Positions 24,107 to 44,362 are shown, counted from the first letter of the stretch. The stretch is DNA of 64,000 bases from Anaerolineae bacterium (GCA_024653325.1 JANLFX010000006.1:2803-66802); one strand, 5' to 3'. Notes: a model not told the origin generated them from the sequence alone. Numbers and translations: made by a program.

Positions 24107-24111
24107 TTTGA

Positions 24112-24183
24112 TGGGCCCTGCTGGGTTCGAACCAGCGACCAACCGGTTATGAGCCGGTCGCTCTGCCGCTGAGCTAAGGGCCC
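24112..24183 (-). tRNA. tRNA with CAU anticodon, probably tRNA-Ile2 (lysidine type) rather than elongator Met; no CCA encoded
   Basis: rc: GGGCCCT TA GCTC agcggca GAGC g ACCGG ctCATaa CCGGT tggtc GCTGG ttcgaac CCAGC AGGGCCC A. It lacks the three G-C pairs of an initiator anticodon stem. C4-C5, the variable loop UGGUC and the T arm resemble E. coli ileX as I recall it. Confidence 0.85.
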
Positions 24184-24185
24184 TC

Positions 24186-24260
24186 TGGAGCGGGAGACGG
24201 GATTTGAACCCGCAACCCACGGCTTGGAAGGCCGATGCGCTACCGTTGCGCTACTCCCGC
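24186..24260 (-). tRNA. tRNA-Gly (anticodon UCC), CCA encoded
   Basis: rc: GCGGGAG TA GCGC aacggta GCGC a TCGGC ctTCCaa GCCGT gggtt GCGGG ttcaaat CCCGT CTCCCGC T CCA. Confidence 0.9.
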
Positions 24261-24263
24261 GTG

Positions 24264-24338
24264 TCGGGGCGGGCGGACTCGAACCGCCGACCTCGCGGTC
24301 CCAAACCGCGCGCTCTAACCAACCTGAGCTACGCCCCG
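24264..24338 (-). tRNA. tRNA-Pro (anticodon UGG), no CCA encoded
   Basis: rc: CGGGGCG TA GCTC aggttggtta GAGC g CGCGG ttTGGga CCGCG aggtc GGCGG ttcgagt CCGCC CGCCCCG A. Confidence 0.9.
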
Positions 24339-25701: not shown

Positions 25702-26454
25702 CTACAGAATGTGAGCCAGGAATCGCTTGGTACGTTCCTCTTTAGGGTTGGTAAGAAGCTCGTCAGGTGGGCCCATTTCGACCCAAACCCCTTCGTCCAT
25801 GAAAATTATTCTATCGGCCACGTCACGGGCGAAGTGCATCTCATGGGTAACGACGACCATGGTCATGCCCTCGTTAGCCAACCGTTCCATCACCTCCACG
25901 ACCTCGCCGATCAACTCGGGGTCGAGAGCGGAAGTAGGTTCGTCGAAGAGCATGATCTTGGGTTCCATGGCTAGAGCACGGGCAATGGCTACCCGTTGCT
26001 GTTGTCCACCTGACAGGCGGGACGGGTACTCATCTCTTTTTTCCGAGAGGCCGACCCAGGCCAGCAGTTCTTCAGCCTTAGCAATGGCTTTTTCCTCGGG
26101 CATTTTTTTGACGGTAATGGGGGCCTCGATGATATTGCCCAGGGCGGTCATGTGCGGAAAAAGGTTGAATTGCTGAAAGACCATACCGGCCTTCTGGCGA
26201 ATCTCCTGAATGCGCCGCCGGTGCTCGCGGCCCGGCTCCCTGGCCCTGATCTCCACCCCATCAATCTCCACGGTGCCATCTGAGGGCTCCTCCAGAAAGT
26301 TGAGGCAGCGCAGAAAAGTGCTCTTGCCTGCACCTGAGGGACCAATGATGACCACTACTTCACGAGGCATCACCTCCAGGTCCACACCCTTGATGACGTG
26401 CAGGGGGCCGAAATATTTATGCAAGCCGTGCACCTTGATTATCGGTTCAGTCAT
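25702..26454 (-). CDS. polar amino acid ABC transporter ATP-binding protein (GlnQ/HisP-like)
   Basis: ATG 26454 ([16 protein letters not shown]). [28 protein letters not shown]. Confidence 0.9.
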
Positions 26455-26507
26455 TCCATCCCTCCAACCTTCCAGCCTTCCGTCTTCCACCCTCCCATCC
26501 TCCCCCC

Positions 26508-28676
26508 TTACCTCCTCTCCCCACGGGCCATGTAGGTTTCCAGCTTGCCCTGGAAGAACTGGAAAACAATGGTCAAAATCCAGTAAAAAGCAGCCGCAAT
26601 GAGGAAAGTCTCCAGGTTCCGAAAGTTCTGCCGGCCAAGCTTTTGGGCCCGAAAAGTCAATTCCTGTACGGTGATCATAGACACCAGGGCCGAGTCCTTC
26701 ATCATGGCGATGAATTCATTGCCGATGGGCGGGATAACAATACGCAGGGCCTGGGGCATAACAATGCGACGGAAAGTTTGGCTGGATGACATGCCCAGGG
26801 CGTGGGCCGCCTCATACTGCCCGATGCCAATGGCTTGAATGCCGGCCCGGAAGATCTCGGTCATGTAGGCCCCGTAATTGACCCCTAAAGCCAGGATGCC
26901 GGCCAGTTTAGGTTCCAAAGTGATGCCGAGCTGCGGCAGTGCCAGGTACCAGATGAAAATCTGAACCAGCAGGGGCGTGCCTCGGATGAGGGAGATGTAA
27001 AAGCCGGAGATGCCATTAGCTGCCGGGTTGTTAGATAACCGGGCCAATGCGCCTATTAGGGCCAGGATGGTGGCCAGGGCAATGGCCGCCGCCGAGATGA
27101 ACATCGTCAGCCCTGCGCCGCCCATGATAAAGGGCAACCACTTGCGCATAAAGGCAATGTCCAAGCCAAAGCGACGCAGCACGGAAAAGAGCAATATGAA
27201 AATGAACAGCCACGTGGCCATGACGAACAGCCCAAAACGTATATTCCCAGATCGCCGGGCCGCCATCAACTGTTCAGCCAGAGAGGTCGCCTCGGGAGCC
27301 TGGTAGGGAATGGCAATAGCATCATGTCGGATATAGGCTACCAGGAAGATATACCAGACGAGCAGGAGTATCAACGGCCAGGCGATGTTGAGTCGAACGC
27401 TCCAGGAGATGGGGTAGGCAGTAGTTTCCAGAAGGGGGAGCACAATGCTGAACAATGGACCGATGGTGTACAATGCCAAAGATCCCAGATGCCCCCAGGT
27501 ATGCACACGCCACAGCCCCCAGGCCAGCACCAAACCCAACAGGCCACTGCCCAGCATCCAGGCGGCCAGCACCGTCCCCCACACCGGCATGAGACCCAGC
27601 CTGGTCCATACCAGATGACGCTCCAGTTGATTGACGCCGTCCCACAGTCGGACACTTCCATCGGATCCGCCGGAGATAATCGTGTCTGCATCAGCGCCAA
27701 AAGCCACGCTGGTCACTGTACCGAGGTGACCTCCGAAGAGGCCAGCAAACTTGCCACCGGACACCCTCCAGCGGCGGACGTAGTTATCCGCACCGCTGGA
27801 GAGAAGATATTCACTGGAAGCATCGAAAACTACTTTGGTGACTGAGGCCAGATGCCCCTTCGTCGCCCAGGCAACCTTACTCTTCTCAATGTCCCAGATG
27901 AGGACGGTACCCCCGTCACTTCCCGAGGCCAGGTAATTGCCATCAGGGCTGAAGGCCAGGGCGGTCACTTTTTCACCCTGACCTGGCTGGCCTTCCGTTT
28001 CTTCGCCCTCTACGTATCCCTCCAGTCTGTGCAAGGAGATTCCAGTACGGGCTTCCCAAATCTGGATTTGCTCACCGTCACCAGCAGCCACCAGGGTGCC
28101 GTCGTGACTAAGAGCCACGGCCAATTTGGTACTCTCGCCGGGACCGATGGCCTGGAGCACCTGCCCTGATTCTGGGTCCCACACGCGGACGATACCGTCC
28201 TTTCCTATCGTGGCTAGAAGCGAGCCATTGGCAGCCACGGCCAGGCTGTTCAGCGGTCCATCGGCGGTAGCCAGTACTTTTTTAGCCTGACCGCCAGTTG
28301 AACCGGCGCTGAGCACTGTCTGGACATCCCATATCAGGACCTTACCGTCCTGACCAACCGAGAACAAAGTTGAAGCGGAGGAATCAAAGGCCACACCGGT
28401 GACCGGGCCAGTGTGGCCAGCGAGGGTTAGCATGTTCCACCCGTTAGCTATATTCCACAGGCGAATTGCTCCATCCTGTGCGCCGGCGGCGACCAGGTTG
28501 CCGTCGCCACTCACTGCCAGGTCATACACCGGGCTGGTTACGGCTAACCGCAGCGGTCCGCCGGCATAGTATTGGATGCCATAAAGCAGACTCAGTCCGG
28601 CGGTGAGGGCGACCAGCAGGCATAAAAGTTTCATCGCCCTCGAAAGAGGGAGGTGTGAACCGGTTGAAATATCCAA
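26508..28676 (-). CDS. fusion: signal-anchor + seven WD40 repeats + four extra TM helices + polar-amino-acid ABC permease (HisM/GlnP-type)
   Basis: TTG 28676 lies 9 nt after GAGGAG. Seven repeats of the type [10 protein letters not shown]....L.S.G.DG.V.IWD. C-terminal part: [17 protein letters not shown]..., EAA loop [26 protein letters not shown]. Confidence 0.85.
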
Positions 28677-28739
28677 TGCCCTTATCTCCTCATCAGTACT
28701 TGTTTACCGCCTATCCCAAAAGTGGTTGTAGTAGCGGCT

Positions 28740-28765
28740 GTAGGACAAGCTTAAGCTCGTCCTAC
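28740..28765. repeat. GTAG-flanked hairpin whose GTAG supplies the TAG stop of the OppF-like gene
   Basis: GTAGGACAAGC ttaa GCTCGTCCTAC. On the minus strand the TAG is at 28764-28762. Confidence 0.8.
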
Positions 28766-29757
28766 ATAGTATCGTGATGGCAGGCTACGAAATGATCTTT
28801 CTGTACCTCACGCAGCTCTGGCTCGACTTTAGTGCATTCTTCCTGGGCAGCGGGACAGCGCGGGTGGAATCGGCAACCAGTAGGTGGGTTGATCGGGTTA
28901 GGGATTTCTCCCCGCGGCATGGCCGCCGTGCGGCGGAAACGTGGATCGGGGACGGGCACCGCGGCCAACAGCGCCTGGGTGTAGGGATGCAGTGCATGGC
29001 GGTATACATCGGTTAATCGTCCCATCTCCACGATGCGGCCCAGATACATGATGGCAATACGGTCGCAGATGTATTTGGCAGTGGCCAGGTCGTGGGTGAT
29101 GAAAAGGTAGGTCAGGTTGAAATCCTGTTTCAGTTGTAACATCAGGTCTAGGAGCAAAGCTCGTACCGAGACGTCGGCCATGGCGATGGGTTCGTCGGCG
29201 ACGATGAGGTCCGGGTGCAGGATCAGCGCCCGGGCGATGACGGCTCTTTGTCGCTGCCCGCCACTCAGTTGATGCGGGTATTTGTTGTACAGAACGTGGG
29301 CCGGGGTCAGTCCCACGCGCTCCATCATTTCTAACACCCGGCGGCGTTTCTCTTCTCCTCGGGCCTCGTCGAAAATCACCAGGCTGTGGCCGATGGCGTC
29401 GCCAGTCTTCATTCTGGGGTTCATGGAGGCCAGCGGATCCTGGAAGATGACCTGCATACGCTTTCGCATCCGGCGCATTTCTTCTTTGCTCAGCGAGGCC
29501 AGGTTCACTCCGTCGAACACGATGTTTCCGTCGGTCGGCTCTTCCAGACGCAGGATCAGTCGTCCGGTCGTCGTTTTGCCGCTCCCGCTTTCGCCCGCCA
29601 GCCCAAAGACCTCGCCACGACGGATGTCGATGTCTATCCCGTCTACGGCATGCACGAATTGCCGCTGGCGAGTTACCAGGCGTTCGATGAAGCTTTTCTG
29701 GACAGGAAACCACTTTTTCAGGCCCCTGACCTCAACCAGGTTCTCGGATTCCGGCAT
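28762..29757 (-). CDS. oligopeptide/dipeptide ABC transporter ATP-binding protein (OppF/DppF-like)
   Basis: [28 protein letters not shown], and the C-terminal oligopeptide-type extension with [12 protein letters not shown]. Confidence 0.9.
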
Positions 29758-29779
29758 TTACTCTCCTCTGTCAGCAGGT

Positions 29780-30742
29780 TTATTTCTCATACAGCCAACA
29801 AGCGGTCCAGTGGCCAAGCTCTACTTCCTTAAAGAGCGGCTCCTCGACGCGACAGCGCTCCATCGCGCGGGGGCAACGGGGGTGGAACCGACAGCCAGGG
29901 GGCGGGTTGATCAGATCAGGCGGTGATCCGCTCATAATCTGCAGGCGGTCTTCGGTGAGGCTGATGTTGGGCACTGAACTCAAGAGCCCTCTGGTATAAG
30001 GATGAAGGGGAGTATCAAAGAGGGGGAGAGCCTCAGCCAATTCCACCAGCTTACCGGCGTACATCACCGCTACCCGGTCGGCCAGTTCGGCCACGACACC
30101 GATGTTGTGGGTGATAAGGATGATGGTCAGCTTGAACTGCTGTTGCAGGTCTCGGAGCAGGTCCAGAAACTGGGCCTCGACGATCACGTCCAACGAGGTT
30201 GTCGGCTCATCGGCGATGATCAGGTCGGCGTTCAGGGCCAGGGCCAACCCAATCATCACCCGCTGGCGCATACCACCGCTGAACTGGTGTGGGTAATCGT
30301 CCAGCCGTTCAGCTCTGATGCCCAGTCGGTCAATCAACTGCGCTGCCAGCCGGCGGGCTTCATGCTTGTCCTGAGACCCATGAGTACGGATGGTCTCAAG
30401 GAAATGATCGCTGATGCGCTGCAAGGGGTTCAGGCAGGTCATAGGGTCTTGAAAGACGGTGGAGATGCGTGCGCCACGAAGGCGGCGCATTTCTTCCTCG
30501 CTCAACTCCAACAGGTTCTGGCCGTCGAAAATGATCTTGCCGCCGACGATTTTGCCGGGCGGGCGTAACAAGCGCAGGATAGCCATGCCCAACGTGGATT
30601 TGCCACAGCCCGATTCACCTACCAGGCCCAGCACTTCGCCGCTGTACACCGTCAGGCTAACGTCATCCACTGCCCGCACGATGCCGGCTCTGGTGGGATA
30701 ATCTATGCGCAAATTGCTTATCTCTAAAACCCGCTCGTTCAT
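29780..30742 (-). CDS. oligopeptide/dipeptide ABC transporter ATP-binding protein (OppD/DppD-like)
   Basis: ATG 30742 is in an ATGA overlap with the permease stop. [40 protein letters not shown]. Confidence 0.9.
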
Positions 30743-31992
30743 ACTTCGGCCAACCTCGGATTCAATATCTCGCTCAGTCCCTCGCCGAACATGCTGAAGC
30801 CCATCGCCACCAGGATAATCATCAGGCCGGGGAAGGTTACCATCCACCACTGACCGGCGGCCAGAAATTGCCGGCCTTTACTGATGTCGTATCCCCAGTC
30901 CGGGGTCGGCGGGGGCAGGCCCAGGCCGATGAAACTCAAACCGGCCTCGGTCAATATGGCATCGGCGATGTTGACTGAGAAGATGACAACGATAGAGGCA
31001 ATCACGTTGGGAAAGATGTATTGGAAGAGAATGGTCAGCGGCCTGGCGCCCAGACTGCGGGCCGCTTCAATGTAGAGTTGCTGTTTGATGGCCAGGACCT
31101 GTCCACGGACCATTCTGAAGAAAGTTGGCATGTAGACCACCGCAATGGCCACGGTGGTGGTCATCGTGCCGGTGATCACCGCAGTCTGGTCACCGCTCAG
31201 TCGCAGGCCAACGGCTCCCGTGACGTTTTTCAGCACCTGTTGCATCTGGAGTTGCAGCACTGCGGCCATGGCGATGGCCAGGATGAGGCCCGGAAAGGAG
31301 TAGATGCTGTCCATGATGAGAGAAAGGACGCGGTCAATCGTGCCCCCGATGAAGCCGGAAAGCAACCCCGTGGGTACCCCCACCAATGCCGAGAATCCGG
31401 CTGACAGGATGGCTACCAGCAGTACTGCCCGCGCACCGAAGATAATGCGGCTCAGGATATCGCGGCCCAGGTTGTCGGTGCCTAACACGAAGGTCGGGCC
31501 GAAGGGTGCCCCGATCTGTTTCAACCGATCACCGTAAGCCGACATGAGTGCAGGGGCCACATTTTCCTCCACCAGGAGAGCATCCACCTGGCCCGCGGCC
31601 AGGGCTTCAAAGCACTCCTCGATTTTATAGAACTTCTTGACCTTAGCATTCAGTTCCAGGGCGCAGAACTGGCCGGTGGTATTGGCCCGCACGCCCACCA
31701 GGGTTCCAGCCAGGTCGGCGGGCTGCTGGATGGTCTCCTCGTCGGAGCGCACGATCAGAACCTGACGCCCTTTGCCCGGTGGGGTGAAGGGTGAACCGAC
31801 AGACTTGACGGGATCGTAAGGGGCCAGATGGGGGGCCAAAATGGTCATCAGGAAAATCAAAATCAGGATAACAGCACCGGACACAGTAATGTACCACTCG
31901 GCGCCGTACCATTTTGCGCCCCTGAAAAAACGGGCAATGAGGCCGATGTTCTCATCAAAAGTCAGGCTGGTTTCAGCAGATTGAATGGCCAT
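30739..31992 (-). CDS. OppC/DppC-type ABC permease with a roughly 100-aa binding-protein-lobe-like insert in the first external loop
   Basis: TM1, then ...DLAGTLVGVRANTTGQFCALELNAKVKKFYKIEECFEALAAGQVDALLVEENVAP... precedes the canonical LGTDNLGRDILSRIIFGAR. The EAA region is present. Confidence 0.85.
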   Translation of the reverse strand: MAIQSAETSLTFDENIGLIARFFRGAKWYGAEWYITVSGAVILILIFLMTILAPHLAPYDPVKSVGSPFTPPGKGRQVLIVRSDEETIQQPADLAGTLVGVRANTTGQFCALELNAKVKKFYKIEECFEALAAGQVDALLVEENVAPALMSAYGDRLKQIGAPFGPTFVLGTDNLGRDILSRIIFGARAVLLVAILSAGFSALVGVPTGLLSGFIGGTIDRVLSLIMDSIYSFPGLILAIAMAAVLQLQMQQVLKNVTGAVGLRLSGDQTAVITGTMTTTVAIAVVYMPTFFRMVRGQVLAIKQQLYIEAARSLGARPLTILFQYIFPNVIASIVVIFSVNIADAILTEAGLSFIGLGLPPPTPDWGYDISKGRQFLAAGQWWMVTFPGLMIILVAMGFSMFGEGLSEILNPRLAEV

Positions 31993-32003
31993 GATTTATC
32001 GTC

Positions 32004-33434
32004 CTAATAACGAATGCGCGGGTCAATGTAAGCGTAGATAATATCCACGAGCAGGCTGACGCCGGCAACCAAAAAAGCGAACACCACGATCGTGCCCTGA
32101 ATAGTGGAGAAATCGCGGTCGTATATGCGGCGCACCAGCATGTTGCCCAGGCCCGGCCATGAGAAAGTCGTTTCGGTGAGGACGGCGCCGGCCAGCAGCA
32201 GGGCAAACTGCAAGCCCATCATGGTGAGAATAGGGATGAAAGCATTCTTCAAAGCGTGCTTGTAGACCACTACCCGCTCCGGGATGCCCCGCGCCCGGGC
32301 AGCCACGATGTAATCCTGCCGCAGGACGTCCAGCATGTTCGAGCGGGTAAGCCGGGTGAAAATACCGGATAGATAAAGCCCCAGTGTGAGGCTGGGCATG
32401 ATCAGGTACTTGATAGAGCTGACCAGGCTGGTGGCATTCCCCGTCAACAGGCTGTCCAGCACGTAAAGGCCCGTGATCTGCCGGGGAGCTATTTCTGGGC
32501 CAATGCGCCCGGCGACGGGCAGCCACCCGAGGCGGACTCCCAGGATCATCTGCAGGACCAGGCCTAGCCAGAAAATGGGCACGGAATAGATGATGATGCT
32601 GAAGATGCGCAGGCCGTAGTCCAGGGGACTCCGGCGTTTTTGAGCAGCAAAGGCCCCGGTCGAGACGCCGATGAGCATAGTGACGATCATCCCTCCCACG
32701 GCCAATTCCACCGTGGCCGGGAATCGGTCGGCGATCTCCGATAACACCGGGCGTCTTTGGGTCATGGACGTGCCGAGATCGCCGTGCAGCAGATTCCAGA
32801 GGTAGATGAAGTACTGGCTGTCGAAGGGGTTAATCCGTATCTCGAACCGCTCAGATGGGGCCCACCCCTCTGTTTGCCTGGTGGTGATGACTTCGGCCCA
32901 GTCTCCCTCTACTCTTACCCTCTTGATAGTCTCTCCTGCGCTCAGGTGTTCGACCACCTTGCTGCCTGCGGTATCGGCGTAAATATCGGTTTCGGATGCG
33001 GCTCGCGCTGTAGAGAAGAGCCGTTCTCGAAGGCCGATGCGCAGATCTTTTACCCGTACCCAGCCTTGCACCTGTTCGGTGGCTGCCAGCCAGAGCCAGC
33101 CCTCTTCGGAAGTCCAGCCGGTGATCCTGAGTTTTTCTTCTTTCTCAATCGGTCGCAGGATCCGCGAGTCTGTCTTGGGCTTTTCGTAAAGATTTGCCGT
33201 CTCTTTGGCAATGGCTGTGCTACCCCGAAAGTTGAAAAGCACTGGCTTATCCAACCCCAATGCGTGCCGCAGGTTTCGGAGTTGCTCCTCGGACGCCGTC
33301 TCCCGCAACATGGCCAGCGCCGGGTCACCGGGCATGACGCGCAGGATGACAAACACCAGGGTGACCAGAATCAGCACCATGGGCACGGTCATGAGCAGGC
33401 GGGTGAGGATGTGCGCACGCAGTGACGATCCCAT
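32004..33434 (-). CDS. OppB/DppB-type ABC permease with a roughly 150-aa insert resembling two SH3b domains
   Basis: ATG 33434 lies 8 nt after AGGAG (the ORF-track N-terminal extension is rejected). LGLDKPV, then ANLYEKPKTDSRILRPIEKEEKLRITGW...GWVRVKDL and TDIYADTAGSKVVEHLSAGETIKRVRVEGDWAEVITTRQTEGWAPSERF, then QYFIYLWNLLHGDLGTS. Confidence 0.85.
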   Translation of the reverse strand: MGSSLRAHILTRLLMTVPMVLILVTLVFVILRVMPGDPALAMLRETASEEQLRNLRHALGLDKPVLFNFRGSTAIAKETANLYEKPKTDSRILRPIEKEEKLRITGWTSEEGWLWLAATEQVQGWVRVKDLRIGLRERLFSTARAASETDIYADTAGSKVVEHLSAGETIKRVRVEGDWAEVITTRQTEGWAPSERFEIRINPFDSQYFIYLWNLLHGDLGTSMTQRRPVLSEIADRFPATVELAVGGMIVTMLIGVSTGAFAAQKRRSPLDYGLRIFSIIIYSVPIFWLGLVLQMILGVRLGWLPVAGRIGPEIAPRQITGLYVLDSLLTGNATSLVSSIKYLIMPSLTLGLYLSGIFTRLTRSNMLDVLRQDYIVAARARGIPERVVVYKHALKNAFIPILTMMGLQFALLLAGAVLTETTFSWPGLGNMLVRRIYDRDFSTIQGTIVVFAFLVAGVSLLVDIIYAYIDPRIRY

Positions 33435-33515
33435 TAAGATTACTCCTGCATTTTGCGAAAGAGAGGGGTTTTGGCAGGCCAGCCAGCGCCCACCAAGACC
33501 CCTCATTGCTATCTT

Positions 33516-33541
33516 GTAGAACGGGCTTAAGCCCGTTTTAC
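33516..33541. repeat. GTAG-type hairpin between the binding-protein gene and the permease gene
   Basis: GTAGAACGGGC ttaa GCCCGTTTTAC. Confidence 0.75.
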
Positions 33542-33547
33542 TACCAC

Positions 33548-35944
33548 TTATTCCTTGCCGATCAGGAAGTAGTGGAGCTGCATCAGCGGGTCCAGGGTGA
33601 TGCCCGTGACACCCTTTGCGTAGGCGATGTACAACGCACCCTGCGCAAACGGGGTGGTGGGGTTCTCCTCGAACCACATTTCCTGGATCTGCTCGTAGAG
33701 TTGCGCCCGCTTGGCCTGATCGGTCTCCACTTGCGCAGCCTCCAGCAGGGCATCCATCTCAGGATTGCTGTAGTAGGTGCCGATACCCTTGGTGGCCGTG
33801 GAATGGGCGAAGGGCCAGGTGTAGTTGTCGGGGTCCAGGTAGTCTGGGTACCAACCCAGCAGGAAGACGGGCATGGAGCCAGCGTTGCGGTACTGCTTGT
33901 AGGTAGCCCACTCGGCGCTCTGCAGGTTGATCTGGATCACCCCGGTGGCCTCGTACTGGTCCTTGATGAGGGCCACCACGTCGGCCTCGGTGTCGCCGTA
34001 GTGATCCGGGCTCCACCACAGGTCCATCACCAGCGGGTTGCTTTCGTTGAACCCGGCTTCGGCCAGCAAGGCTTTGGCCTGCTCCAGGTCAGGCTCCTCG
34101 GGGTAGAAGACTTTGTGGCCCAGGAAGCCCGGCGGGATCATGCTGTAAAGCGGCACCTTGGTCCCCTGGAAGCCGACATCGGCGATCTGCGCCCGGTCGA
34201 GGCACAGGGCCAGCGCCTTGCGCACACGGGGATCGTCGAAAGGCTTGGTCTGGGATTGGTAGCACACGTAGCGGATCTCGGTGCCTGGTCCCTGCTCTAC
34301 CACGATGTTCGGGTTGGCGCGCAGGCGTTCTAGGTCAGCTGGCAGGAGGGTCTTCCAGGCTACGTCAATCTCCCCGTTCTCCAGGGCCAGGGCCATGGCC
34401 GCAGCGTCGGCGAAGTAGCGGACAATGATCTTGTCGGCGACGGCAGGTTTGCCGTAGTAGGTCGGGTTGCGCTCGAAGACTGCTTCCTCGTCCCGCTTCC
34501 AACTGGTGCAGACGTAGGGGCCGATACCACCGGAGTAGTTATCCGCCTGGTACTCAGTGGTGCTCCACAGATTGGGGTTCAAGATCTTGTAGGGGTTGGT
34601 CGCCACCAGTTGCGGGAAGAAGCCGACCGGGGCCTTGAGCACAAACTTGACCGTGTAGTCGTCTATCTTCTCGATGTGGTCCACGTAGGCGGACACCAGG
34701 AAGGCCACCTCACCGGCCAGGGTCTTCTCCATGTCAATGACCCGGTTGATGGTGAATACCACGGCGTCGGCATTGAAAGGCGTACCATCGGGGAAGGTGA
34801 CGCCCTGTTTGAGCTTGAAGGTATATTCCAGGCCGTCCTCGCTGATAGTAGGCCAGTCGGCGGCCAGGCCCAGTTCGAGCTCACCGGATGTGCCTGGCAC
34901 GTTGTTCAGCAGGCCATCGGCGATCTGATGCGTGAACTCCCAGTCGGGGAAACTGTAGGCATCGGCGGGGTCAAGCGTGGCCGGCTTGTCGGTGGTGCCG
35001 ATGATGATGCGGACTTCGGCTTCCCCTGGCTTCACCTTCTTGGTGATGTCTATACCGTACCACTTCAGCGAGAGCTTGGTCAGGGTGCCGTCTTCGTGCA
35101 TGGCAGCGATGATCTCGTTGAACTTGGCCAGGGCTTTGTCGCTGGGGCCGCGCTTCTTATCCAGGGCAAAAGCCAGCGGCTCGTAGAAAGCCGGGGTACC
35201 CACGTACTTGAGTGGCACGCCGCTGTCAATCGCGTTCTGGATTGTGGGCTGAGCGGACATCACGGCATCCAGGCGGACACCGTCACCCAGAGCTAGGTCC
35301 TGGATCGCCTCGGCGTCAGTGCTATAAGGCACTACCTGGACACCCGCCGGCGGGTCGTACATGATTTCCCCGCCCAGGATTTGCAGTTTCCCGGCCAGGT
35401 AATCCTCGTAAGTGGTGGCCGTGCCGAGCCCCACCTTCTTGCCCGCCAGGTCTTCCACCGAGGTGATGGTAGTGTTATCTTTGTGAACGGCGAAAGAAGC
35501 GGGGGTGTAGTAGTAAGGATCGGTGAACCACAGGACCTCCGCACGAGCCTCGGTAGGGGTCATGGAGCCGATGCTCACGTCCCAACGGCCGCCCCAGTTA
35601 CCGGCGGTGATCATGTCCCAGTCCGGGGTGACGAACTCCACCTGCACTCCCAGGCGCTTGGCCACTTCCTGAGCGACGTTGATGTCAAAGCCGTCAAGCT
35701 CGCCCTTATCGTTCAGGAAGCTCTGCGGGGCGTAGTTGGGGTCGGTGGAGACCACCAGTTTGCCCGCTTCCATGATTTGATCCAGCAGGCCCTTTTCCGC
35801 TGCTGGTGGGCTGGTGGGAGTGGGGGTGGGCTTCTCCGCTGGAGGCGCAGTGGGAGCTACCGTGGTTTTGGGTGGGCAGCCGGTGAGCGCTGCCAGCACC
35901 AAGCTGAGAATTACGAATATGCTCAGAATACGTAGTGTTTTCAC
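33548..35944 (-). CDS. two-headed substrate-binding lipoprotein: family 3 (amino-acid type) domain fused to family 5 (peptide/nickel type) domain
   Basis: GTG 35944 lies 6 nt after GGAGGAG. Lipobox LAALTGC and a Pro/Thr linker. GKLVVSTDPNYAPQSFLNDKGELDGFDINVAQEVAKRLG (family 3). Then TLDPADAY...IADGLLN...LAADWPTISEDGLEYTFKLKQGVTFPDGTPFNADAVVFT (family 5) through to the C-terminus. Confidence 0.85.
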   Translation of the reverse strand: MKTLRILSIFVILSLVLAALTGCPPKTTVAPTAPPAEKPTPTPTSPPAAEKGLLDQIMEAGKLVVSTDPNYAPQSFLNDKGELDGFDINVAQEVAKRLGVQVEFVTPDWDMITAGNWGGRWDVSIGSMTPTEARAEVLWFTDPYYYTPASFAVHKDNTTITSVEDLAGKKVGLGTATTYEDYLAGKLQILGGEIMYDPPAGVQVVPYSTDAEAIQDLALGDGVRLDAVMSAQPTIQNAIDSGVPLKYVGTPAFYEPLAFALDKKRGPSDKALAKFNEIIAAMHEDGTLTKLSLKWYGIDITKKVKPGEAEVRIIIGTTDKPATLDPADAYSFPDWEFTHQIADGLLNNVPGTSGELELGLAADWPTISEDGLEYTFKLKQGVTFPDGTPFNADAVVFTINRVIDMEKTLAGEVAFLVSAYVDHIEKIDDYTVKFVLKAPVGFFPQLVATNPYKILNPNLWSTTEYQADNYSGGIGPYVCTSWKRDEEAVFERNPTYYGKPAVADKIIVRYFADAAAMALALENGEIDVAWKTLLPADLERLRANPNIVVEQGPGTEIRYVCYQSQTKPFDDPRVRKALALCLDRAQIADVGFQGTKVPLYSMIPPGFLGHKVFYPEEPDLEQAKALLAEAGFNESNPLVMDLWWSPDHYGDTEADVVALIKDQYEATGVIQINLQSAEWATYKQYRNAGSMPVFLLGWYPDYLDPDNYTWPFAHSTATKGIGTYYSNPEMDALLEAAQVETDQAKRAQLYEQIQEMWFEENPTTPFAQGALYIAYAKGVTGITLDPLMQLHYFLIGKE

Positions 35945-36301
35945 AGTTCTCTCCTCCTTCGTAATATCGCATGGCACTCAATAAGCGACTTCGGATTTCA
36001 TTGGATACGCTTCTTGGTCTGGATGACATCACCTCCTTTCAAATTAAAATTACAGCCATTGTGAAACTCTGCGTTGAGTGGTTGGTGAGGAGTTAGTCGG
36101 CGGTTAGGCGGTCTTGTGACTGGGACTGGAAAGTGGTGAGTCTGGCCCATCACCTGGGAGGGCGGGGGTATGGATCGGGTTGGCAAACCCGACCTCCGGT
36201 ACCTGCCTGCTCCGAATCTTACCCTGAGCAGGGTCGAAAGGACAACCGAAAGGGGCAAGCTGCTCCCTGCACCCCCGCTTGAGTCTGAATAATTGCGTAT
36301 T

Positions 36302-36330
36302 AGTATAATAGAAATGGCCCAAGCTGTCAA
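36302..36330 (-). promoter_or_regulatory. near-consensus internal promoter (TTGACA - 17 nt - TATACT) overlapping the stop codon of the upstream binding-protein gene
   Basis: Minus strand TTGACA (36330-36325; the TGA stop 36329-36327 lies inside it), 17-nt spacer, TATACT (36307-36302). Predicts a leader of about 350 nt before GTG 35944. Confidence 0.5.
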
Positions 36331-38630
36331 GGTGACGTTTTAAGCGCGTTTTCCCTGAAGCCTGCAAACACGAGTTTAAAGAAACGGAATTCCCCTTGCC
36401 GTCCACGGTGATAGCGGTTCTCTTCATCCCACCAGCGTTCAAAATTGAACACCACGGCGTTGGCGTCAAGAGGGGTGCCGTCCTGGAAAATTATTCCCTG
36501 GCGCAGGTAGAAGGTGTAGGTCAGCCCGTCGTCGGAAACGGTATAATGCTCCGCCAGCCAGGGTTCTGGCGTGGAAGTGCCTGGCTTGAAACGCATTAAC
36601 CCTTCGGTGATCTGACTACCTACCTGCCAGGCGGTGGGATCAGTCTCGTCGGCCAGGTCCAGGCCCGGCGGTTCGCCGGACAGGGCATGAGTGTAGGTCT
36701 GCTGGCCATTGCTCGCCAGGCGGAAGTCCTCGCAGCCGATGGCGCTTGGGGTGAGGCCCGCTACTGACTTCTGCGCACCCAGGGTTTCGGCAAAAGCCAC
36801 CAGAGGCACGACCAGAGCTTCGTCGTAGATGGCCTGGTTGATTTGACTGTAGAGTTTCTGCCGCTGACCAGGGCTGGGCTGGCCGCGCGCTTTTGCCAAC
36901 AGCTCCAGTAATTCCGGGTTAACAGCGCTGCCCAGGGAGGTATTTGTCGGCGTCAGGATGGGCGTCAGATAGCTATCGGCGTCGGGGATGGTCGAAGCCC
37001 AACCCAGGATGGCCAGAGGCGCTTTGCCGCCGATGACCTGATCGCTGAAAGTCAGAAGATCAGCAGTGGTTATCTGTACGGTGACGCTGATTGCTGCCAG
37101 GTCCTTCTGAATGGCCGCCGCTACCTGAGCAGGAGCGGCCGTCAGGTAAGGGGGTAGGGCCGGTGGCACCCACAGCGTGGTGGTGAAGCCCTGGGTATAG
37201 CCGACGGAGGCCAACAGCGAGCGTGCTTTGCCAGGATCATAGGTATAAGTGGGCGCTTTCTTGTCGTATCCGAAAACCGCTGGCGGGATCAGGCTGCGGG
37301 CCACCTGGCCGTTTTCGGGGAACGCCGTCTTTACCAGACCTTCGCGGTCTATAGCGTGATTCAGGGCCTGCCGCACCTGAAGGCTGTCCAGCGGGGCAAA
37401 GTCCTGATTGATGGCCAGATAACCAATGGCCCGCGCCGGGCGAAGGAGCACCTGAGTCGCTTTGTTTTCTTTCAGCGTGGCCATAGCTGGCAGGGATAGC
37501 CCGTCGGCACTATCCACTGTGCCGCTGAGCACGGCCTGGGCCCGCAGTTCGGGGTCGGGGGTGATGGTGAAGATCAGGGTTTGCGTTTTGGCCGGTTCGC
37601 CCCAATAGCTCTCATTGCGGGTGAGGATGATAGCCTCGCCCGCTTTCCATTCCGTCAATTGGAAGGGGCCGGTGCCCACCGGATGCCGATACAAGTCATT
37701 GGGGTGCTCACGGATGGCCGTGGGGCTCATCAGGCCCAGGGGAGGCATGGCCAGGCTGGACAGGAAAGTACCATCCGGTCGGTTGAGGATGATCTGGACG
37801 GTGTATTCGTCCAGGGCAGAGACGAACTTGATGAGCCCTTTTGGTTCGGGGATAACCAGTTCCGGCGGGGTGGTCCACTTGTGGATCAGTTCATCTATCA
37901 GGCCTTGGGCTTGGACGGTGGACAGGCCGGCGTTGAGTTTATCGCGCAGGGCAGTATTGCCTTGGCGCACGGCGATGCCCAGGTATTCGGTGGTGAAAGG
38001 TTCACCAGCAATTTGGAGTTGGCCGTCGTAGCTGTACACAAAATCGAAAGCAGCCGGGGCCGCGGTGACGACGGCGTCAAGTTGTTTATTAGCCAGGTCC
38101 ACGAAAGCCAGGTCAATCGTGTCGTAAGTCTGAATGACGGCGCCTTCGATTTTCTCGACGGCCTCGGCGCCGGCGGAACGCAACTGGACGCCAACCTTAC
38201 GCCCGACCAGGTCGCGGTGACTGTGGATGTCCTCCGTTCCAGTGCGCACGACGACCACCTGCCCGGCGTTAAGATAGGGTTGAGTGAAGTCGGCCAGCTC
38301 CTCCAGTTCGGGGGTGATGCGCAGAGAGGAGATCACTGCGTCGAACTGGCCCGCGTCCAACCCGGCGATGAGGGTGTTGGCGGGCGTGTCCACGAATTCG
38401 GCCTCCAGACCCACCGCTTCGGCGACGGCCCGCATCAAATCCACGTCCAGCCCTACCAATTCGCCCTGCTCGTCGAGGAATTCCATTGGTGGCTGGGTGG
38501 CGCTCGTGCCGACAATAATAGTAGTAGCCTCCGGGCGTGGCGGTGTGGCCACCTCGATGGGTGCGCAACCGGCCAATGCCAAGGCGACCGCTACTGTGAT
38601 CAGGGCGGCCATTATAATTTTGACTCTCAC
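36327..38630 (-). CDS. second two-headed binding lipoprotein: family 3 domain + circularly permuted family 5 domain
   Basis: GTG 38630 lies 7 nt after GGAGGG. Lipobox LALAGC. TSATQPPMEFLDEQGELVGLDVDLMRAVAEAVG (family 3). The family 5 part starts mid-domain (VSALDEYTVQIILNRPDG...PVGTGPFQL...). The usual N-terminal segment (ITEGLMRFKPG...WLAEHYTVSDDGLTYTFYLRQGIIFQDGTPLDANAVVFNFERW) sits at the C-terminus. Confidence 0.85.
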   Translation of the reverse strand: MRVKIIMAALITVAVALALAGCAPIEVATPPRPEATTIIVGTSATQPPMEFLDEQGELVGLDVDLMRAVAEAVGLEAEFVDTPANTLIAGLDAGQFDAVISSLRITPELEELADFTQPYLNAGQVVVVRTGTEDIHSHRDLVGRKVGVQLRSAGAEAVEKIEGAVIQTYDTIDLAFVDLANKQLDAVVTAAPAAFDFVYSYDGQLQIAGEPFTTEYLGIAVRQGNTALRDKLNAGLSTVQAQGLIDELIHKWTTPPELVIPEPKGLIKFVSALDEYTVQIILNRPDGTFLSSLAMPPLGLMSPTAIREHPNDLYRHPVGTGPFQLTEWKAGEAIILTRNESYWGEPAKTQTLIFTITPDPELRAQAVLSGTVDSADGLSLPAMATLKENKATQVLLRPARAIGYLAINQDFAPLDSLQVRQALNHAIDREGLVKTAFPENGQVARSLIPPAVFGYDKKAPTYTYDPGKARSLLASVGYTQGFTTTLWVPPALPPYLTAAPAQVAAAIQKDLAAISVTVQITTADLLTFSDQVIGGKAPLAILGWASTIPDADSYLTPILTPTNTSLGSAVNPELLELLAKARGQPSPGQRQKLYSQINQAIYDEALVVPLVAFAETLGAQKSVAGLTPSAIGCEDFRLASNGQQTYTHALSGEPPGLDLADETDPTAWQVGSQITEGLMRFKPGTSTPEPWLAEHYTVSDDGLTYTFYLRQGIIFQDGTPLDANAVVFNFERWWDEENRYHRGRQGEFRFFKLVFAGFRENALKTSP

Positions 38631-38736
38631 CCCGCGTTCCCTCCGGAAGTGTAATATTTGAATCGTCGTAATTAGCGATTCTCCAGCAGGTTGCTGCTGA
38701 TCGGTAACAACTCCAAGTGCCTGGGCAGAGGCACTG

Positions 38737-40011
38737 TTACTGGCCTTGTACGTTGCGCAGAACGACGGGCAGGTAGGCCACACTCGCTGCCTGCTGAACA
38801 CTGACGGTGACTTCTTGAGTAGGCCAGTTCTGCTGCCAACCGAACCAGGTCACCCCTTCCTTGACCATGTCCCACTTCAGGACGTAGGTCCCCGGCTGGA
38901 GAGGGGCCAGGACCTTGGCATTCAGCCACACATCGCCGCTTGGCCCCACGTCCTGGCCCAGATCGGTGCGCAGCCCGTCTCAGGTGATGACGTTTTGGCC
39001 GCTGCTATCGTACCAGTGGTACGATAGACGCACCGGGTTGCTGCCCCCGTGACTCCACGTCGCGTTGCCCGTGTTCTGGATGCGCATTTGCACATTATAA
39101 CCCATTCCGGTCAGCATGGTAGTAGGCGTGTGAGACAGGGGACCATAGTAATCCTCGCCGTACGTGCCGTGAAAGCGGATGTCCGGCGTCACGTCCAGCC
39201 AGGCCCAGCGATAGTTGTAGTCCGCGCCCGACAGCCGGACGTGGGCGTAGTAGTGAGTGAGCATCTGGCGGTAGTCCCAGGGGGCGGCGCCGGCATAGCC
39301 GGTCAGCTCCCAGGCGTGGGTGGCGTTCTGTGACATGCCCGGTTGGTGAGTGCCGATGGCGTTATTGCTGTCCACCGGGTCGGGGACGGAGACCAGGGTC
39401 TCAGATTCCAGTGAACTGCTGGCGGTGGGATTGCCGCAGTTGGCGAAGTACTTGGCGCAGGCATAGTCCCAGTCCGAGCGGAAGACCCGCACAAGAAGGG
39501 TGTCGTTTACCGCGTCGCGATGCGCCTGAGTGATGGTGTTCTGGCCTGTCTGCTGGGCGGGATTGAGCCAGTAGCTTTGTGACCAACTATTCTCCACTGA
39601 AAGCGACGTGAAAGGTGGCCAGGGAAGGTTATGGGTACGAGCGAGAACGGCACCACAACCTGGACCTATTTCCCTGTGAGCGAAGGTGTGGATGGCCACC
39701 GCGCCGGCCCGCAGGGCTTGATCCTGCGACAACCAATGCCACTCGTTGGCCAGCACCTGGGGCGCGTAGGCAGTACCGGTAACAGTGTCGAAATCGTAGC
39801 CAATAGGACCGAAATCTTGCTCTGGATCGCTGCATCGCCTGCCACAGACGTAGACCCATTCGAAGCCGCCCTGATAAACCGGGTGCTCATTGGGAGCGTG
39901 CGGATTGCCGGCATAGACAGGTGTTTGAGTAGACCTTTCAATCTCTATCGCAGCACACAGGATCACGATGGCAACGAAGGACGGGCAAACTGCTCTGGGC
40001 ATGGCTTTCAT
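38737..40011 (-). pseudogene. secreted protein with C-terminal Ig-like (NBR1-like) domain, interrupted by one in-frame TGA (38982-38980)
   Basis: ORFs 38980..40017 and 38737..38949 share one frame. The read-through sequence ...SYHWYDSSGQNVIT*DGLRTDLGQDVGPSGDVWLNAKVLAPLQPGTYVLKWDMVKEGVTWFG is a single continuous domain. ATG 40011 lies 6 nt after GGGAGA. N-terminal signal-anchor present. Confidence 0.7.
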
Positions 40012-40029
40012 GTCCAATCTCCCGATGTA

Positions 40030-41412
40030 TCAAGGTTTCTGCTGCAGGGTGATGATAGCGGCATTGGGCAGACCCGATGGCTCCCACATCAGCCGTGAGT
40101 AGCCAATCTGCGTGCCCGTCGGCGACCAGTGAGGGAAGAGCACAAAGCCCACGCGGCTCTCACCTAGAGGATGCAAACCACTCCCATCCCGATTGACTAT
40201 CCACAGCGATGACTCCTGGCCTCGCACGAAGGCGATAGCCTGGCTATCCGGCGACCAGGTGGGAGCTATTAACTCGTCCCACTCCCGTTCGGCGGTGGCG
40301 ATAGGATGCGGGTCTGAACCGTCGGCATTGACCACCCACAGGTCGCCGCTGATAGGCTCGTAGCGACCAAAGACGGTAAAGGCCAGGTAACGGCTGTCTG
40401 GCGACCAGGCAATAGCCTGTCGCCCGCCAGTTTCGTTGCACTTATCGGCTATCATTGTTGCTTGAGAACCGTCTAGGTTGGCGATCCACAGCTCTCCCGC
40501 CTTCTCTCCCGGAATCCAGGCCACCTTGCGCCCATCAGGAGATATCCAGTAGAGCCCCGGCACGGGCTGTTCTGTGGTGATTGGTGTGATATAGATGTCG
40601 TTCAATTGGCGGGTCTCCGTCCCGTCGGACTGCACGGCGAATATGTGTCCTCCCTTCAGAAAGGTCAGCTCTCCGCTTGGCAGCCAATACATGTCCAGCA
40701 CACCGGTGAAGTCGCTGTCGGCTACCTTCCAGGATTTGAGCGTCTCAACGTCGGCCACGTAAATTTCCCCCTCGATCCCTTCGTCCTTAGCCGGCACCGA
40801 GTAGGCGATGTACTTGCCATCCGGCGACCAAGTCTCACATCCCACCCAGTCGGCCACCTTCCGCCGCTCTGTCCCATCGGCCTTCATCATCCACAAGTTA
40901 TGTAGAAACAAGCCACTCCTCGGCTTTCTCCAGTGCCATTTCGACTGTGCGGGATCGGCGAGCTCTATCAAGATGTGAGTGCCGTCCGGGGACCAGCCGA
41001 CGAACTCGAAACGGGCGTCGAAATCCACAAAGCGCACATCCGCTACCTCCAGGTTCTCGGCGCGAAAGGCTTTGGGCGGCACCATGGTCGGCGGTGGCGG
41101 GCCCACCGCCGGGGTGGGGGTGGTCAGCCCGCCGATGGGTGTAGAGGTGGGCAGCGTGAATGGTGTGGGGGTGATGCGCGCCATGGCCGTGGCCGTCGGC
41201 TCCCAGTTCCAGCGCGTTGGCGTTGGCAAAGGAGATACGAAAGGGGATTCCTGCGCAGGAGGTGAAGGTGTGCCGATGGGCGACTGCTGCTGTGTTACCG
41301 GCTCTCCCTCACCGGCTGGCCGGAAAAGCAGCACCAGCACCACGGTCAGCACCGCCAGTGCCCCCAGGCCCAACAGTCCCTTCAGCCAGTCAGCTACTCT
41401 TCTCATCGTCAT
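40030..41412 (-). CDS. membrane-anchored PD40/TolB-like beta-propeller protein
   Basis: TM anchor and Pro/Thr-rich linker, then repeated WSPDG motifs (WSPDGTHILIE, WSPDGKYIAYS, ISPDGRKVAWI, WSPDSRYLAFT, WSPDSQAIAFV, WSPTGTQIGYS). Confidence 0.85.
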   Translation of the reverse strand: MTMRRVADWLKGLLGLGALAVLTVVLVLLFRPAGEGEPVTQQQSPIGTPSPPAQESPFVSPLPTPTRWNWEPTATAMARITPTPFTLPTSTPIGGLTTPTPAVGPPPPTMVPPKAFRAENLEVADVRFVDFDARFEFVGWSPDGTHILIELADPAQSKWHWRKPRSGLFLHNLWMMKADGTERRKVADWVGCETWSPDGKYIAYSVPAKDEGIEGEIYVADVETLKSWKVADSDFTGVLDMYWLPSGELTFLKGGHIFAVQSDGTETRQLNDIYITPITTEQPVPGLYWISPDGRKVAWIPGEKAGELWIANLDGSQATMIADKCNETGGRQAIAWSPDSRYLAFTVFGRYEPISGDLWVVNADGSDPHPIATAEREWDELIAPTWSPDSQAIAFVRGQESSLWIVNRDGSGLHPLGESRVGFVLFPHWSPTGTQIGYSRLMWEPSGLPNAAIITLQQKP

Positions 41413-41538: not shown

Positions 41539-42246
41539 CTATCCACCCAGGTAGGCAACTTTTACCTGTGGGTTCTCGCGCAGTTCCTTAGCGGTGCCTT
41601 CCAGGACAATACGCCCTGTCTCCAGCACGTAGCCACGATGGGCCACCTGCAGGGCCATGTTGGCGTTCTGCTCCACCAGCAGAATACTCACCCCTTGCCG
41701 GTTGATCTCCTGGATGATTTCGAAGATTTCCTCGACCAGAATGGGAGCCAGGCCCATGGAGGGCTCGTCCAACAGCAAAAGTTTCGGGTCTGACATCAGT
41801 CCCCGGCTCACGGCCAGCATTTGCTGCTCGCCGCCGGAAAGGGTGCCACCGCGCTGGGCCAATCGCTCTTTCATGCGCGGGAAGCTGGCGAACACCCGTT
41901 CCATGGACCTTTGAATCCCCTGTTTGTCATTGCGGGTGAATGCGCCCATTTCCAGGTTCTCCTGGACGGTGAGGGGGGCAAATATCTTGCGGCCCTCTGG
42001 CACTTGCGAAATGCCCAGCTTGACGATCCGGTCGGCAGAGGTCTTAGTGATGTCCTGTCCCCTGAAGATTATATGCCCACTGCGTGGTCGGATCAGGCCA
42101 CAGATGGTGTTTAACGTGGTGCTCTTTCCGGCGCCGTTGGCTCCGATCAGGGTGACGATCTCGCCCTCTTCGACGTGGAAAGAAATGCCTTGCAGAGCGT
42201 GAATCGCGCCGTAGAAAACATTCAGGTCTTTAACTTCCAGAATCAT
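41539..42246 (-). CDS. livF: branched-chain amino acid ABC transporter ATP-binding protein
   Basis: ATG 42246 lies 6 nt after GGAGGTGG. MILEVKDLNVFYG, GANGAGKST, LSGGEQQM, LLLDEPSMGLAP. Confidence 0.9.
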   Translation of the reverse strand: MILEVKDLNVFYGAIHALQGISFHVEEGEIVTLIGANGAGKSTTLNTICGLIRPRSGHIIFRGQDITKTSADRIVKLGISQVPEGRKIFAPLTVQENLEMGAFTRNDKQGIQRSMERVFASFPRMKERLAQRGGTLSGGEQQMLAVSRGLMSDPKLLLLDEPSMGLAPILVEEIFEIIQEINRQGVSILLVEQNANMALQVAHRGYVLETGRIVLEGTAKELRENPQVKVAYLGG

Positions 42247-42247
42247 C

Positions 42248-44352: not shown

Positions 44353-44362
44353 AGAATCCTCC

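Follow-up and report, generated by a model that had tools for sequence, protein, structure and literature searches.

A conserved locus of Anaerolineae that combines peptide-type and amino-acid-type ABC importer genes with lipoproteins fusing receptors of both families

A stretch of 64,000 nucleotides (nt) from an Anaerolineae bacterium (GCA_024653325.1 JANLFX010000006.1:2803-66802), analyzed here as a whole and referred to as the window, contains a run of ATP-binding cassette (ABC) importer genes in which receptors of two importer families are fused into single lipoproteins. A preliminary description of this DNA had placed ten minus-strand genes between 25702 and 41412; all ten open reading frames (ORFs) were recovered at or near those positions, and Pfam profile searches confirmed nearly all of the assigned domains (SBP_bac_3, SBP_bac_5, BPD_transp_1, WD40, and PD40). 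The transporter part begins with two lipoproteins that each carry a family-3 and a family-5 receptor head, the upstream S8 (36327-38630; SBP_bac_3 with 127 bits and SBP_bac_5 with 299 bits in two stretches) and the downstream S7 (33548-35944; 125 and 307 bits, respectively). On the same strand follow a DppB/OppB-type permease (32004-33434; BPD_transp_1_N and BPD_transp_1, the latter with 152 bits), a DppC/OppC-type permease (30739-31992; OppC_N and BPD_transp_1), an OppD/DppD-type ATPase (29780-30742) and an OppF/DppF-type ATPase (28762-29757), both with ABC_tran and oligo_HPY domains, a polar-amino-acid-type permease that carries a WD40 domain (26508-28676; WD40 with 166 bits and BPD_transp_1 with 93 bits) and that we call the WD40-permease, and a GlnQ/TcyN-type ATPase (25702-26454; ABC_tran with 127 bits). 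The locus had been said to hold one translocator of each kind and no stand-alone receptor, and indeed the 64-kb window contains neither a further receptor of family 3 or 5 nor a further permease of the HisM type.

Both fusions begin with a signal peptide that ends in a lipobox (LTGC in S7 and LAGC in S8). In S7, a Pro/Thr-rich tether leads on to the family-3 head (nt ~35054-35764), a linker of ~12 residues, and a colinear family-5 head (nt ~33569-35008), and S8 has a family-3 head (nt ~37872-38522), a linker of ~10 residues, and a permuted family-5 head. The lipoboxes (...LAALTGC in S7 and ...LALAGC in S8), both of which fit the pattern [LVI][ASTVI][GAS]C, and the head junctions of S7 were read by eye from the sequence. 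SBP_bac_3, the receptor domain (family 3, cluster F) of the polar-amino-acid-type family (PAAT; TC 3.A.1.3), thus occurs here solely as a domain of larger lipoproteins, and the family-3 head of S8 is only ~29% identical to that of S7. Among solved structures, the family-5 head of S7 matches 5u4o, HbpA, and DppA, and its family-3 head matches AncQR. In a single alignment of the S7 head (region 35042-35791) with AncQR, the Arg that contacts the carboxylate of an alpha-amino acid is kept (TEAR vs. TEER) and the Asp that binds its alpha-ammonium group is replaced by Ala; the same Ala was found by eye in the family-3 head of S8 (region 37866-38537) and in free-standing orthologues at two of the related loci described later (L008 and L047).

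The family-5 head of S7 has the standard family-5 (cluster C) order and is colinear with DppA and 5u4o, whereas S8 contains all of the segments in a permuted order: the main body (nt ~36723-37838) comes first, and the segment that would usually form the N-terminus (nt ~36375-36689) stands after it. In a BLASTP comparison of the two proteins (numbered on the 824-aa [amino acid] ORF of S8), residues 324-684 of S8 align with residues 432-794 of S7, and residues 708-795 align with residues 329-418 at 46% identity. Similarly, on the 767-aa numbering of S8, residues 265-636 match residues 129-507 of HbpA (3tpa) and residues 648-752 match residues 12-123. Judged by these alignments, the family-5 fold of S8 is complete, and its first ~125 residues have been relocated to the C-terminus. 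AlphaFold2 predicted two confident domains for S8 with a mean predicted local distance difference test score (pLDDT) of 85; most 10-residue blocks of both heads and of the relocated piece score ~90 or more, and values below 50 are confined to the 10-residue linker between the heads (residues 255-264) and the last 30 residues. Foldseek searches with this model retrieved DppA, 5u4o, GbpA, and GsiB over ~388 columns, which correspond to the colinear part.

The permutation is not confined to S8. It recurs in the second fusions of L001, L015, L024, and L083 and in the head fusions of L024, L034, L040, and L046, the permuted domains being located within 36375-37838 in the window, 13098-15626 in L001, 8969-11416 in L015, 3061-5535 and 15612-18029 in L024, 1802-5632 in L034, and 1828-5619 in L040. 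A query of 227 residues across the new junction aligned over its full length, in a single C-terminal stretch, with ~45 of the best 150 representatives (clustered at 50%), and many of these representatives are stand-alone proteins of 540-590 aa. Because the junction is matched by so many representatives, including stand-alone proteins, the permuted form of family 5 is a real and sizeable family that is older than the fusions. We considered an assembly artefact as the source of the rearrangement in S8 and rejected it given the recurrence in other loci, the confident model, and the matches to the junction.

To compare the locus with its relatives, we used a scan of one genome per species, which detected a full WD40-permease at 45 loci and the closest plain permeases at 35; ORFs were called for each locus and compared with the domains of the window, with context reaching ±10 kb around the match. 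Almost without exception, the plain-permease relatives (Desulfobacterales, Actinomycetota, and other Chloroflexota) have the textbook order of family-3 receptor, permease, and ATPase. Among the WD40-permease loci, 19 of the 45 have a free family-3 receptor (sometimes a 3 + 3 or 8 + 3 receptor) directly upstream of the permease and GlnQ, and we refer to these as simple loci. Another 17 loci, three of them partial, are composites with the order SBP3-SBP5 fusion, OppB, OppC, (OppD, OppF), WD40-permease, and GlnQ, sometimes with a second fusion after these genes. Eight loci are uninformative as the permease lies at a contig end, and one has a different arrangement. Metagenome contigs add the composites L083-L085 and L089-L091. 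In the composites, the peptide-type cassette lies exactly between the family-3 receptor and the permease, and in every case a single protein unites the family-5 receptor with the family-3 head. The linkage of two-headed receptors with one translocator per family is therefore conserved in at least 17 species-level genomes; scattering of these genes in relatives, which the preliminary description had named as the outcome that would speak against it, was not seen.

Identity to the window across these loci is 74-88% for the family-3 head of S7, 71-88% for the permease core, and 77-88% for GlnQ, except that GlnQ reaches 31-32% in L007 and L036, where the best match is a reverse-strand paralogue. 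The 74-88% range includes the free-standing receptors of the simple loci, and identities among fused and free family-3 heads span similar ranges within and between the two groups. Because fused and free heads are equally conserved, these comparisons indicate that the fused family-3 head is an orthologue of the receptor of this translocator and is under unchanged constraint. As an orthologue of the free receptor that serves the WD40-permease and GlnQ, the family-3 head of S7 is the expected receptor of that translocator, and the similarly high identity of head, permease core, and GlnQ across the simple loci supports this assignment.

The peptide-type cassettes of the composites fall into three classes. 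Class I (the window, L083-L085, L002, L028, and L043) has OppD and OppF; class II (L001, L007, L020, L031, L039, and L045) has a colinear family-5 head and lacks OppD and OppF; and class III comprises L024, L034, L040, L046, and, distantly, L015, with a permuted head fusion in the first four (the head fusion of L015 is cut off at the contig end) and with OppD and OppF except in L015. OppB of class I is 34-47% identical to OppB of the other classes. L045 and L046 are 85% identical in the WD40 domain and 92% in the family-3 head, compared with 48% in OppB and 54% in OppC, and L002 shares 90-93% of the family-3 head with L007 and L039, compared with 40-41% of OppB. In a neighbor-joining tree of the permease core, which is poorly resolved, the classes are interspersed with simple loci. 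Because close relatives carry different classes and the classes are interspersed on the tree, we conclude from these comparisons that the cassette in this position was introduced or exchanged on several occasions, with the receptor fusion present each time.

In seven complete composite loci no OppD or OppF is encoded nearby. Compact units of five genes occur in which the two-headed receptor is accompanied by OppB, OppC, the WD40-permease, and a GlnQ-type ATPase, so that a single ATPase gene stands beside three genes for membrane subunits. Such units are found in L090 (10001-18038) and L091 (10001-18235), where the flanking genes are unrelated, and also in L001, L007, L015, L020, L031, and L045, without OppD or OppF within 10 kb.

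Fusions of receptors are not limited to families 3 and 5. L031 (3602-7477), L034 (1802-5632), and L040 (1828-5619) encode three-headed SBP_bac_8 + SBP_bac_3 + SBP_bac_5 lipoproteins of 1264-1292 aa, and these genes are preceded by extra BPD_transp_1 permeases so that three permease sets adjoin. L047 (7131-9362) encodes an SBP_bac_8 + SBP_bac_3 receptor, and L008 encodes a 3 + 3 receptor with two amino-acid-type translocators. In L087 (6567-9119), a Bmp + family-5 fusion (85% identity in the homologue search with S7) lies between nucleoside-type and peptide-type importers. The multi-headed genes of L031, L034, L040, L047, and L087 each adjoin permease genes of the matching families. Among the S7 homologues, fusions of the 3 + 5 type make up at least 80 clusters, and proteins of 1228-1244 aa make up four more, of which three have Pfam families 3, 8, and 5 and P0279 has only 3 and 5; the same search gave free family-5 proteins that are 84-88% identical to the family-5 head of S7. 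Receptors are also fused to permeases: we found family-5 + OppB fusions in P0155, P0159, P0166, and P0178, and a Bmp + BPD_transp_2 fusion in L087. The composite L088 has a plain permease of 264 aa and two OppBC pairs per one OppDF pair. All homologues with a taxonomic name belong to Chloroflexota, Anaerolineae, or Anaerolineales.

The peptide-type cassette of the window has the features of the peptide-type family (PepT; TC 3.A.1.5), that is, OppB- and OppC-type membrane subunits and two oligo_HPY ATPases (68.5 and 71.9 bits); the ATPase pair is the feature absent from the seven related composites. In NCBIfam, the OppB-type permease is nearest to Opp2B and DppB, both below cut-off, and also to GsiC; the OppC-type permease is nearest to Opp2C, Opp4C, and GsiD; and the best matches of the ATPases are OppD (320 bits) for the OppD/DppD-type protein and a dipeptide ATPase (356 bits) for the OppF/DppF-type protein, again below cut-off. 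Both permeases carry inserts that had been proposed from the sequence and that hold up. The first external loop of the OppB-type permease contains two SH3b-like domains (nt ~32790-33224), which match SH3_3 with 36 bits and SH3_4 with 29.6 bits, both above cut-off, when the insert is scanned alone. The OppC-type permease contains half of a binding protein (nt 31459-31776), which corresponds to lobe 2 in amino-acid binding proteins (residues 94-189 of PDB 4zv1, E = 2.8e-7) and is 30% identical to lobe 2 of the family-3 head of S8. An ordinary unfused peptide operon, L086, is headed by a receptor 86% identical to the family-5 head of S7 and encodes an OppB of 477 aa with an SH3_3 match and an OppC of 416 aa. 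In L002 (3738-6071), L028, L043, and L085, the external insert of OppB is much bigger (OppB of 760-783 aa), with matches to Reg_prop, a propeller of two-component regulators, that replace or join the SH3 pair.

The WD40-permease consists of an N-terminal membrane anchor, the propeller (nt ~27621-28556), a four-helix bundle (nt ~27171-27587), and a HisM/GlnP-type core (nt ~26526-27161). The propeller had been described as seven-bladed, and AlphaFold2 predicts 28 strands that form seven blades over residues 50-357 with a pLDDT of ~90, in line with the Pfam WD40 match at residues ~46-350. Helices are predicted at residues 13-38 before the propeller and at residues 364-389, 393-418, 425-450, and 466-502 after it, ahead of the permease core with its BPD_transp_1 match at residues 540-713. 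The membrane feature of the PAAT family is present (TIGR01726 HEQRo_perm_3TM with 93.7 bits against a cut-off of 42.2, beside BPD_transp_1), and so is the ATPase feature, with the GlnQ-type gene 53 bp downstream of the permease. The nearest equivalog-type models are those of cystine TcyL, EhuC/D, and GlnP for the permease and TcyN (348 bits) and GlnQ (321 bits) for the ATPase, all of them below cut-off. Full-length homologues with both WD40 and BPD_transp_1 number more than 120; they are ~700-750 aa long and 50-91% identical. The N-terminus of HisM-type cores lies outside the cell, as in HisQ/HisM and ArtQ, and with four helices between propeller and core, this would place the propeller outside and the N-terminus of the protein inside. 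The mean number of Lys and Arg residues over 22 homologues is 2.5 in the N-terminus, 2.0 in loop A-B, and 5.1 in loop C-D, which are predicted to be inside, and 1.3 and 1.0 in the regions predicted to be outside. Helix parity, hydropathy, and charge bias together thus suggest that the propeller is external. WD40-permeases of 1000-1060 aa are encoded in L029 (10001-13165), L032, L035, and L036, and these contain an extra repeat-rich region of ~330 residues before the propeller without a Pfam match.

The propeller and the SH3b domains had been interpreted as scaffolds of this particular system. We do not uphold this because the same inserts, in same-sized OppB and OppC proteins, occur in the unfused operon L086, and the WD40 domain is equally present in the 19 simple loci while being absent from the composite L088; neither the SH3 and OppC inserts nor the propeller could be retained as composite-specific parts. 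Because both kinds occur outside composites, we assign the SH3 and half-binding-protein inserts to the peptide cassette and the WD40 domain to the permease lineage, and we regard all three as external decorations typical of the importers of this lineage.

All parts of the locus are parts of ABC importers, and it is the architecture that is new, recurrent, and conserved. We think it probable, though well short of certain, that the locus is a composite uptake operon of two complete type-I ABC importers in which each head of a lipoprotein feeds its own translocator. One would be a Dpp/Opp-type importer with DppB-like and DppC-like permeases and two oligo_HPY ATPases, and the other a highly conserved polar-amino-acid-type importer, probably formed by a homodimer of the WD40-permease and two GlnQ subunits. 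The arrangement could have arisen when a Dpp/Opp cassette was placed inside an amino-acid operon between the receptor and permease genes and the two receptor genes merged into one lipoprotein, and the unfused version of this cassette in L086, a normal operon, shows that a functional ancestor exists. The reading is further favored by the orthology and unrelaxed conservation of the family-3 head, the conserved composite order, the exchange of cassettes under a retained fusion, the recurrence of the scheme with other receptor combinations, the operon-like spacing of the genes, and the prediction of S8 as two confident domains, in line with independent heads. The family-3 head would dock on the dimer of the WD40-permease and the family-5 head on DppBC, and the fusion would ensure equal expression and hold both receptors beside both translocators. 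Chloroflexota are taken to have no outer membrane. S8 may be an alternative two-headed receptor with different specificities, by analogy with the paralogous OppA-type lipoproteins that serve one translocator. No equivalog model of NCBIfam scored above its cut-off and hence no substrate was assigned; the amino-acid-type importer came nearest to TcyJLN, Ehu, and GlnHPQ, and the peptide-type importer to Dpp, Gsi, and Nik. The substrates would be a polar amino acid or related compound and di-/oligopeptide-like ligands, respectively.

Several known systems share some of these features. GlnPQ of Lactococcus lactis and related polar-amino-acid importers (TC 3.A.1.3) have tandem binding domains anchored to the cell surface; those of GlnPQ differ in specificity and compete for a single translocator (PMC8025302). 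The locus resembles GlnPQ in its HisM/GlnP-type membrane domain and GlnQ ATPase, its probable homodimer, the presence of more than one tethered binding domain, and the occurrence in a bacterium without a periplasm. However, both heads of GlnPQ belong to family 3 and are fused to the permease, whereas here heads of families 3 and 5 (sometimes also 8) are located on a separate lipoprotein, the operon encodes a translocator for each head, and the N-terminus of the permease has no SBP_bac_3 match and is made up of the WD40 propeller and four extra membrane helices. DppABCDF, OppABCDF, and GsiABCD (TC 3.A.1.5; Escherichia coli DppABCDF 8z1y and 8z1z) share with the locus the DppB/DppC-like permeases, the two oligo_HPY ATPases, and a receptor of family 5, which among solved structures is closest to DppA, HbpA/GbpA, and GsiB; in addition, L086 is an unfused orthologous operon. 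They differ in that the receptor here stands behind a family-3 domain and is permuted in S8 and in one cassette class, SH3b and half-binding-protein inserts are present in the permeases, and one cassette class has no ATPase genes of its own. In Gram-positive bacteria and Borrelia, several paralogous OppA-type lipoproteins share one Opp translocator. The two receptor genes S7 and S8 per one DppBCDF set are comparable and suggest alternative specificities; however, the OppA paralogues are single-domain family-5 proteins, none of which has a head for a second, unrelated importer. Finally, receptor domains are commonly tethered by covalent fusion among these sequences, as in the receptor-permease fusions of the peptide and nucleoside families, but there a receptor is joined to the translocator that it serves, both from one family, and not to a receptor of another family. 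In the literature that we searched, with most subscription journals outside that search, we found no description of receptor fusions between different families, of naturally circularly permuted peptide-binding proteins, of a WD40-bearing ABC permease, or of any system of this composition, the last in agreement with the preliminary description.

Some observations weigh against two complete and independent importers. The seven complete composites without nearby OppD and OppF fit poorly with them; the linkers between the heads are short and may not let the heads dock independently; the replacement of Asp by Ala in the family-3 heads and their free orthologues may mean that the substrate is no standard amino acid; a free-standing family-3 receptor could be encoded beyond the 64-kb window; and the permease core is predicted with low confidence in the AlphaFold2 monomer, so that its topology relies on helix parity and charge bias.

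The main alternative is a coupled supercomplex in which a multi-headed lipoprotein would physically bridge two or three translocators, uptake would be cooperative or cross-regulated, the lone GlnQ would power both types of membrane subunits in the class without OppDF, and the external domains would help to hold the assembly together. Linkers of ~10-12 residues, the retention of the fusion through repeated replacement of the cassette, the units with one ATPase and no OppD/OppF within 10 kb (L090 and L091, beside the seven complete loci), and a family-3 lobe in OppC that could contact the family-3 head are all consistent with it. We nevertheless consider it doubtful because GlnQ is equally conserved (mostly 77-88%) with or without OppD and OppF, showing no visible adaptation to a second partner, and because the external domains that would hold the assembly are present in simple loci (WD40) and in the unfused ordinary operon L086 (SH3 and OppC inserts). 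Moreover, the two OppBC pairs per one OppDF pair in L088 point to sharing within the peptide family or to ATPases acting in trans as a simpler account of the missing genes, and we know of no ATPase described as shared across these two importer families. It seems unlikely to us, on present evidence, that Anaerolineae-type Chloroflexota have multi-translocator uptake machines in which a multi-head lipoprotein physically links two or three translocators and a single GlnQ-type ATPase energizes two importer families in the five-gene class; if they did, these would be the first receptor and the first ATPase shared across ABC importer families.

A second alternative is that only one head is a transport receptor and the other has taken on a different role, as a tether or spacer, as a sensor, or in ligand capture, the remaining translocator being served by a receptor encoded elsewhere. 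Binding proteins act in signaling besides transport (PMC8050422), the family-3 heads lack the canonical ammonium-binding Asp, and our inventory of receptors covers the 64-kb window. However, the same change from Asp to Ala is found in the two free orthologues of L008 and L047, and the receptors of simple loci are the only ones beside their translocator. In addition, the family-3 head is conserved like the permease core and the ATPase, the family-5 head is always accompanied by its own OppB and OppC genes, and that of S7 has the 86% identical unfused orthologue at the head of a normal operon, all of which makes a single functional head distinctly unlikely. That the adjacency is fortuitous, with unrelated neighboring operons and fusions produced by assembly or frameshift errors, is scarcely credible: some long-read assemblies (L001 and L046) do contain frameshift-split genes and one gene of the window itself is interrupted, but independent projects have yielded intact fusion ORFs of 742-868 aa, which fall into at least 80 protein clusters, the gene order is kept in at least 17 species, and the permuted fusion has both a confident AlphaFold2 model and a junction that ~45 of the best 150 representatives cover in full.

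In the usual description of ABC importers, a translocator family is served by one receptor family. Here, receptors of different structural families (3 + 5, 8 + 3 + 5, and Bmp + 5) have repeatedly become fused into one tethered protein, with the matching translocator genes gathered in one operon, and these fusions constitute a natural experiment on tethering, linker length, and competition between heads in transport, questions that have so far been detailed mainly for the same-family tandem heads of GlnPQ (PMC8025302). The class with one ATPase and three membrane subunits makes sharing of an ATPase across importer families directly testable, the large unannotated family of permuted family-5 proteins is relevant to biosensor design and fold evolution, and a widespread permease family with an apparently external WD40 propeller is brought to light. 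Present labels such as "ABC transporter substrate-binding protein" and "ABC transporter permease subunit" mask this architecture.

The gaps between the genes from S7 through GlnQ range from -4 to 113 bp. A putative sigma-70-like promoter on the minus strand (36302-36330; TTGACA-17-TATACT), identified by consensus match only, agrees with 11 of 12 consensus positions and lies in the 382-bp gap (35945-36326) ahead of S7 and after the stop codon of S8; the same hexamers and spacing are present in the equivalent gap of L083 (~2540-2570). Because of the short gaps and this promoter-like site between the S8 stop and S7, the genes from S7 through GlnQ probably form one transcription unit, with S8 in an upstream unit. 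Behind the promoter-like site is a leader of ~300 nt with blocks that are partly conserved between the window and L083. We considered a riboswitch or leader RNA in the 382-bp gap and dropped it, as Rfam recognized no known RNA family there and found only four tRNAs elsewhere in the window. A scan for terminators gave a count not above that expected from shuffled sequences.

The two remaining genes of the ten are located upstream of S8, an Ig-like gene (38737-40017) and a PD40 propeller protein (40030-41412; PD40 with 55 bits). The NBR1-like Ig domain assigned to the former was not borne out: N_BRCA1_IG scores 20.5 bits against a cut-off of 28, and only if TGA is read as Trp, as the gene is interrupted by an in-frame TGA (38980-38982). 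The frame stays open for 80 codons past the TGA, which could reflect a pseudogene, a sequencing error, or read-through. The C-terminus of the Ig-like protein (38737-38790) ends ...VAYLPVVLRNVQGQ; this short tail is hydrophobic and basic and bears some resemblance to a sorting motif. The fetched loci L001-L082 contain no match to either gene, and both are absent from the called genes of L083-L085; in L083, the closest relative with long enough context (permease 74% identical), LivF is directly followed by the S8-type gene. We therefore rejected these two genes as parts of the system and consider them a window-specific insertion. The suggestion that peptides are processed externally is likewise not sustained, as the conserved module contains no peptidase, the PD40 protein has only sub-threshold matches of its propeller region to DPP-type families, and both genes are missing from L083.

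The minus-strand run of ABC genes extends upstream of the ten genes with a complete Liv-type importer (41539-46888). This operon is also adjacent to the cluster in L001 and L024, and in L083 its last gene, LivF, directly precedes the cluster. Its LivH-type permease (44363-45664) has 433 aa, and the Pfam match spans residues 56-417 against a profile of 269 positions, which leaves ~100 extra hydrophobic residues. The downstream neighbors are a PD-(D/E)XK nuclease, a PdtaS/PdtaR-like pair, and glutamine synthetase. The surroundings on the same strand (19997-23849 and 41539-46888) are thus related to nitrogen, with glutamine synthetase, the PdtaS/PdtaR-like (ANTAR) two-component pair, and the full Liv-type importer. 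The four tRNAs form a minus-strand cluster (23962-24338) that separates the gene of the PD-(D/E)XK nuclease from that of the PdtaS-like kinase.

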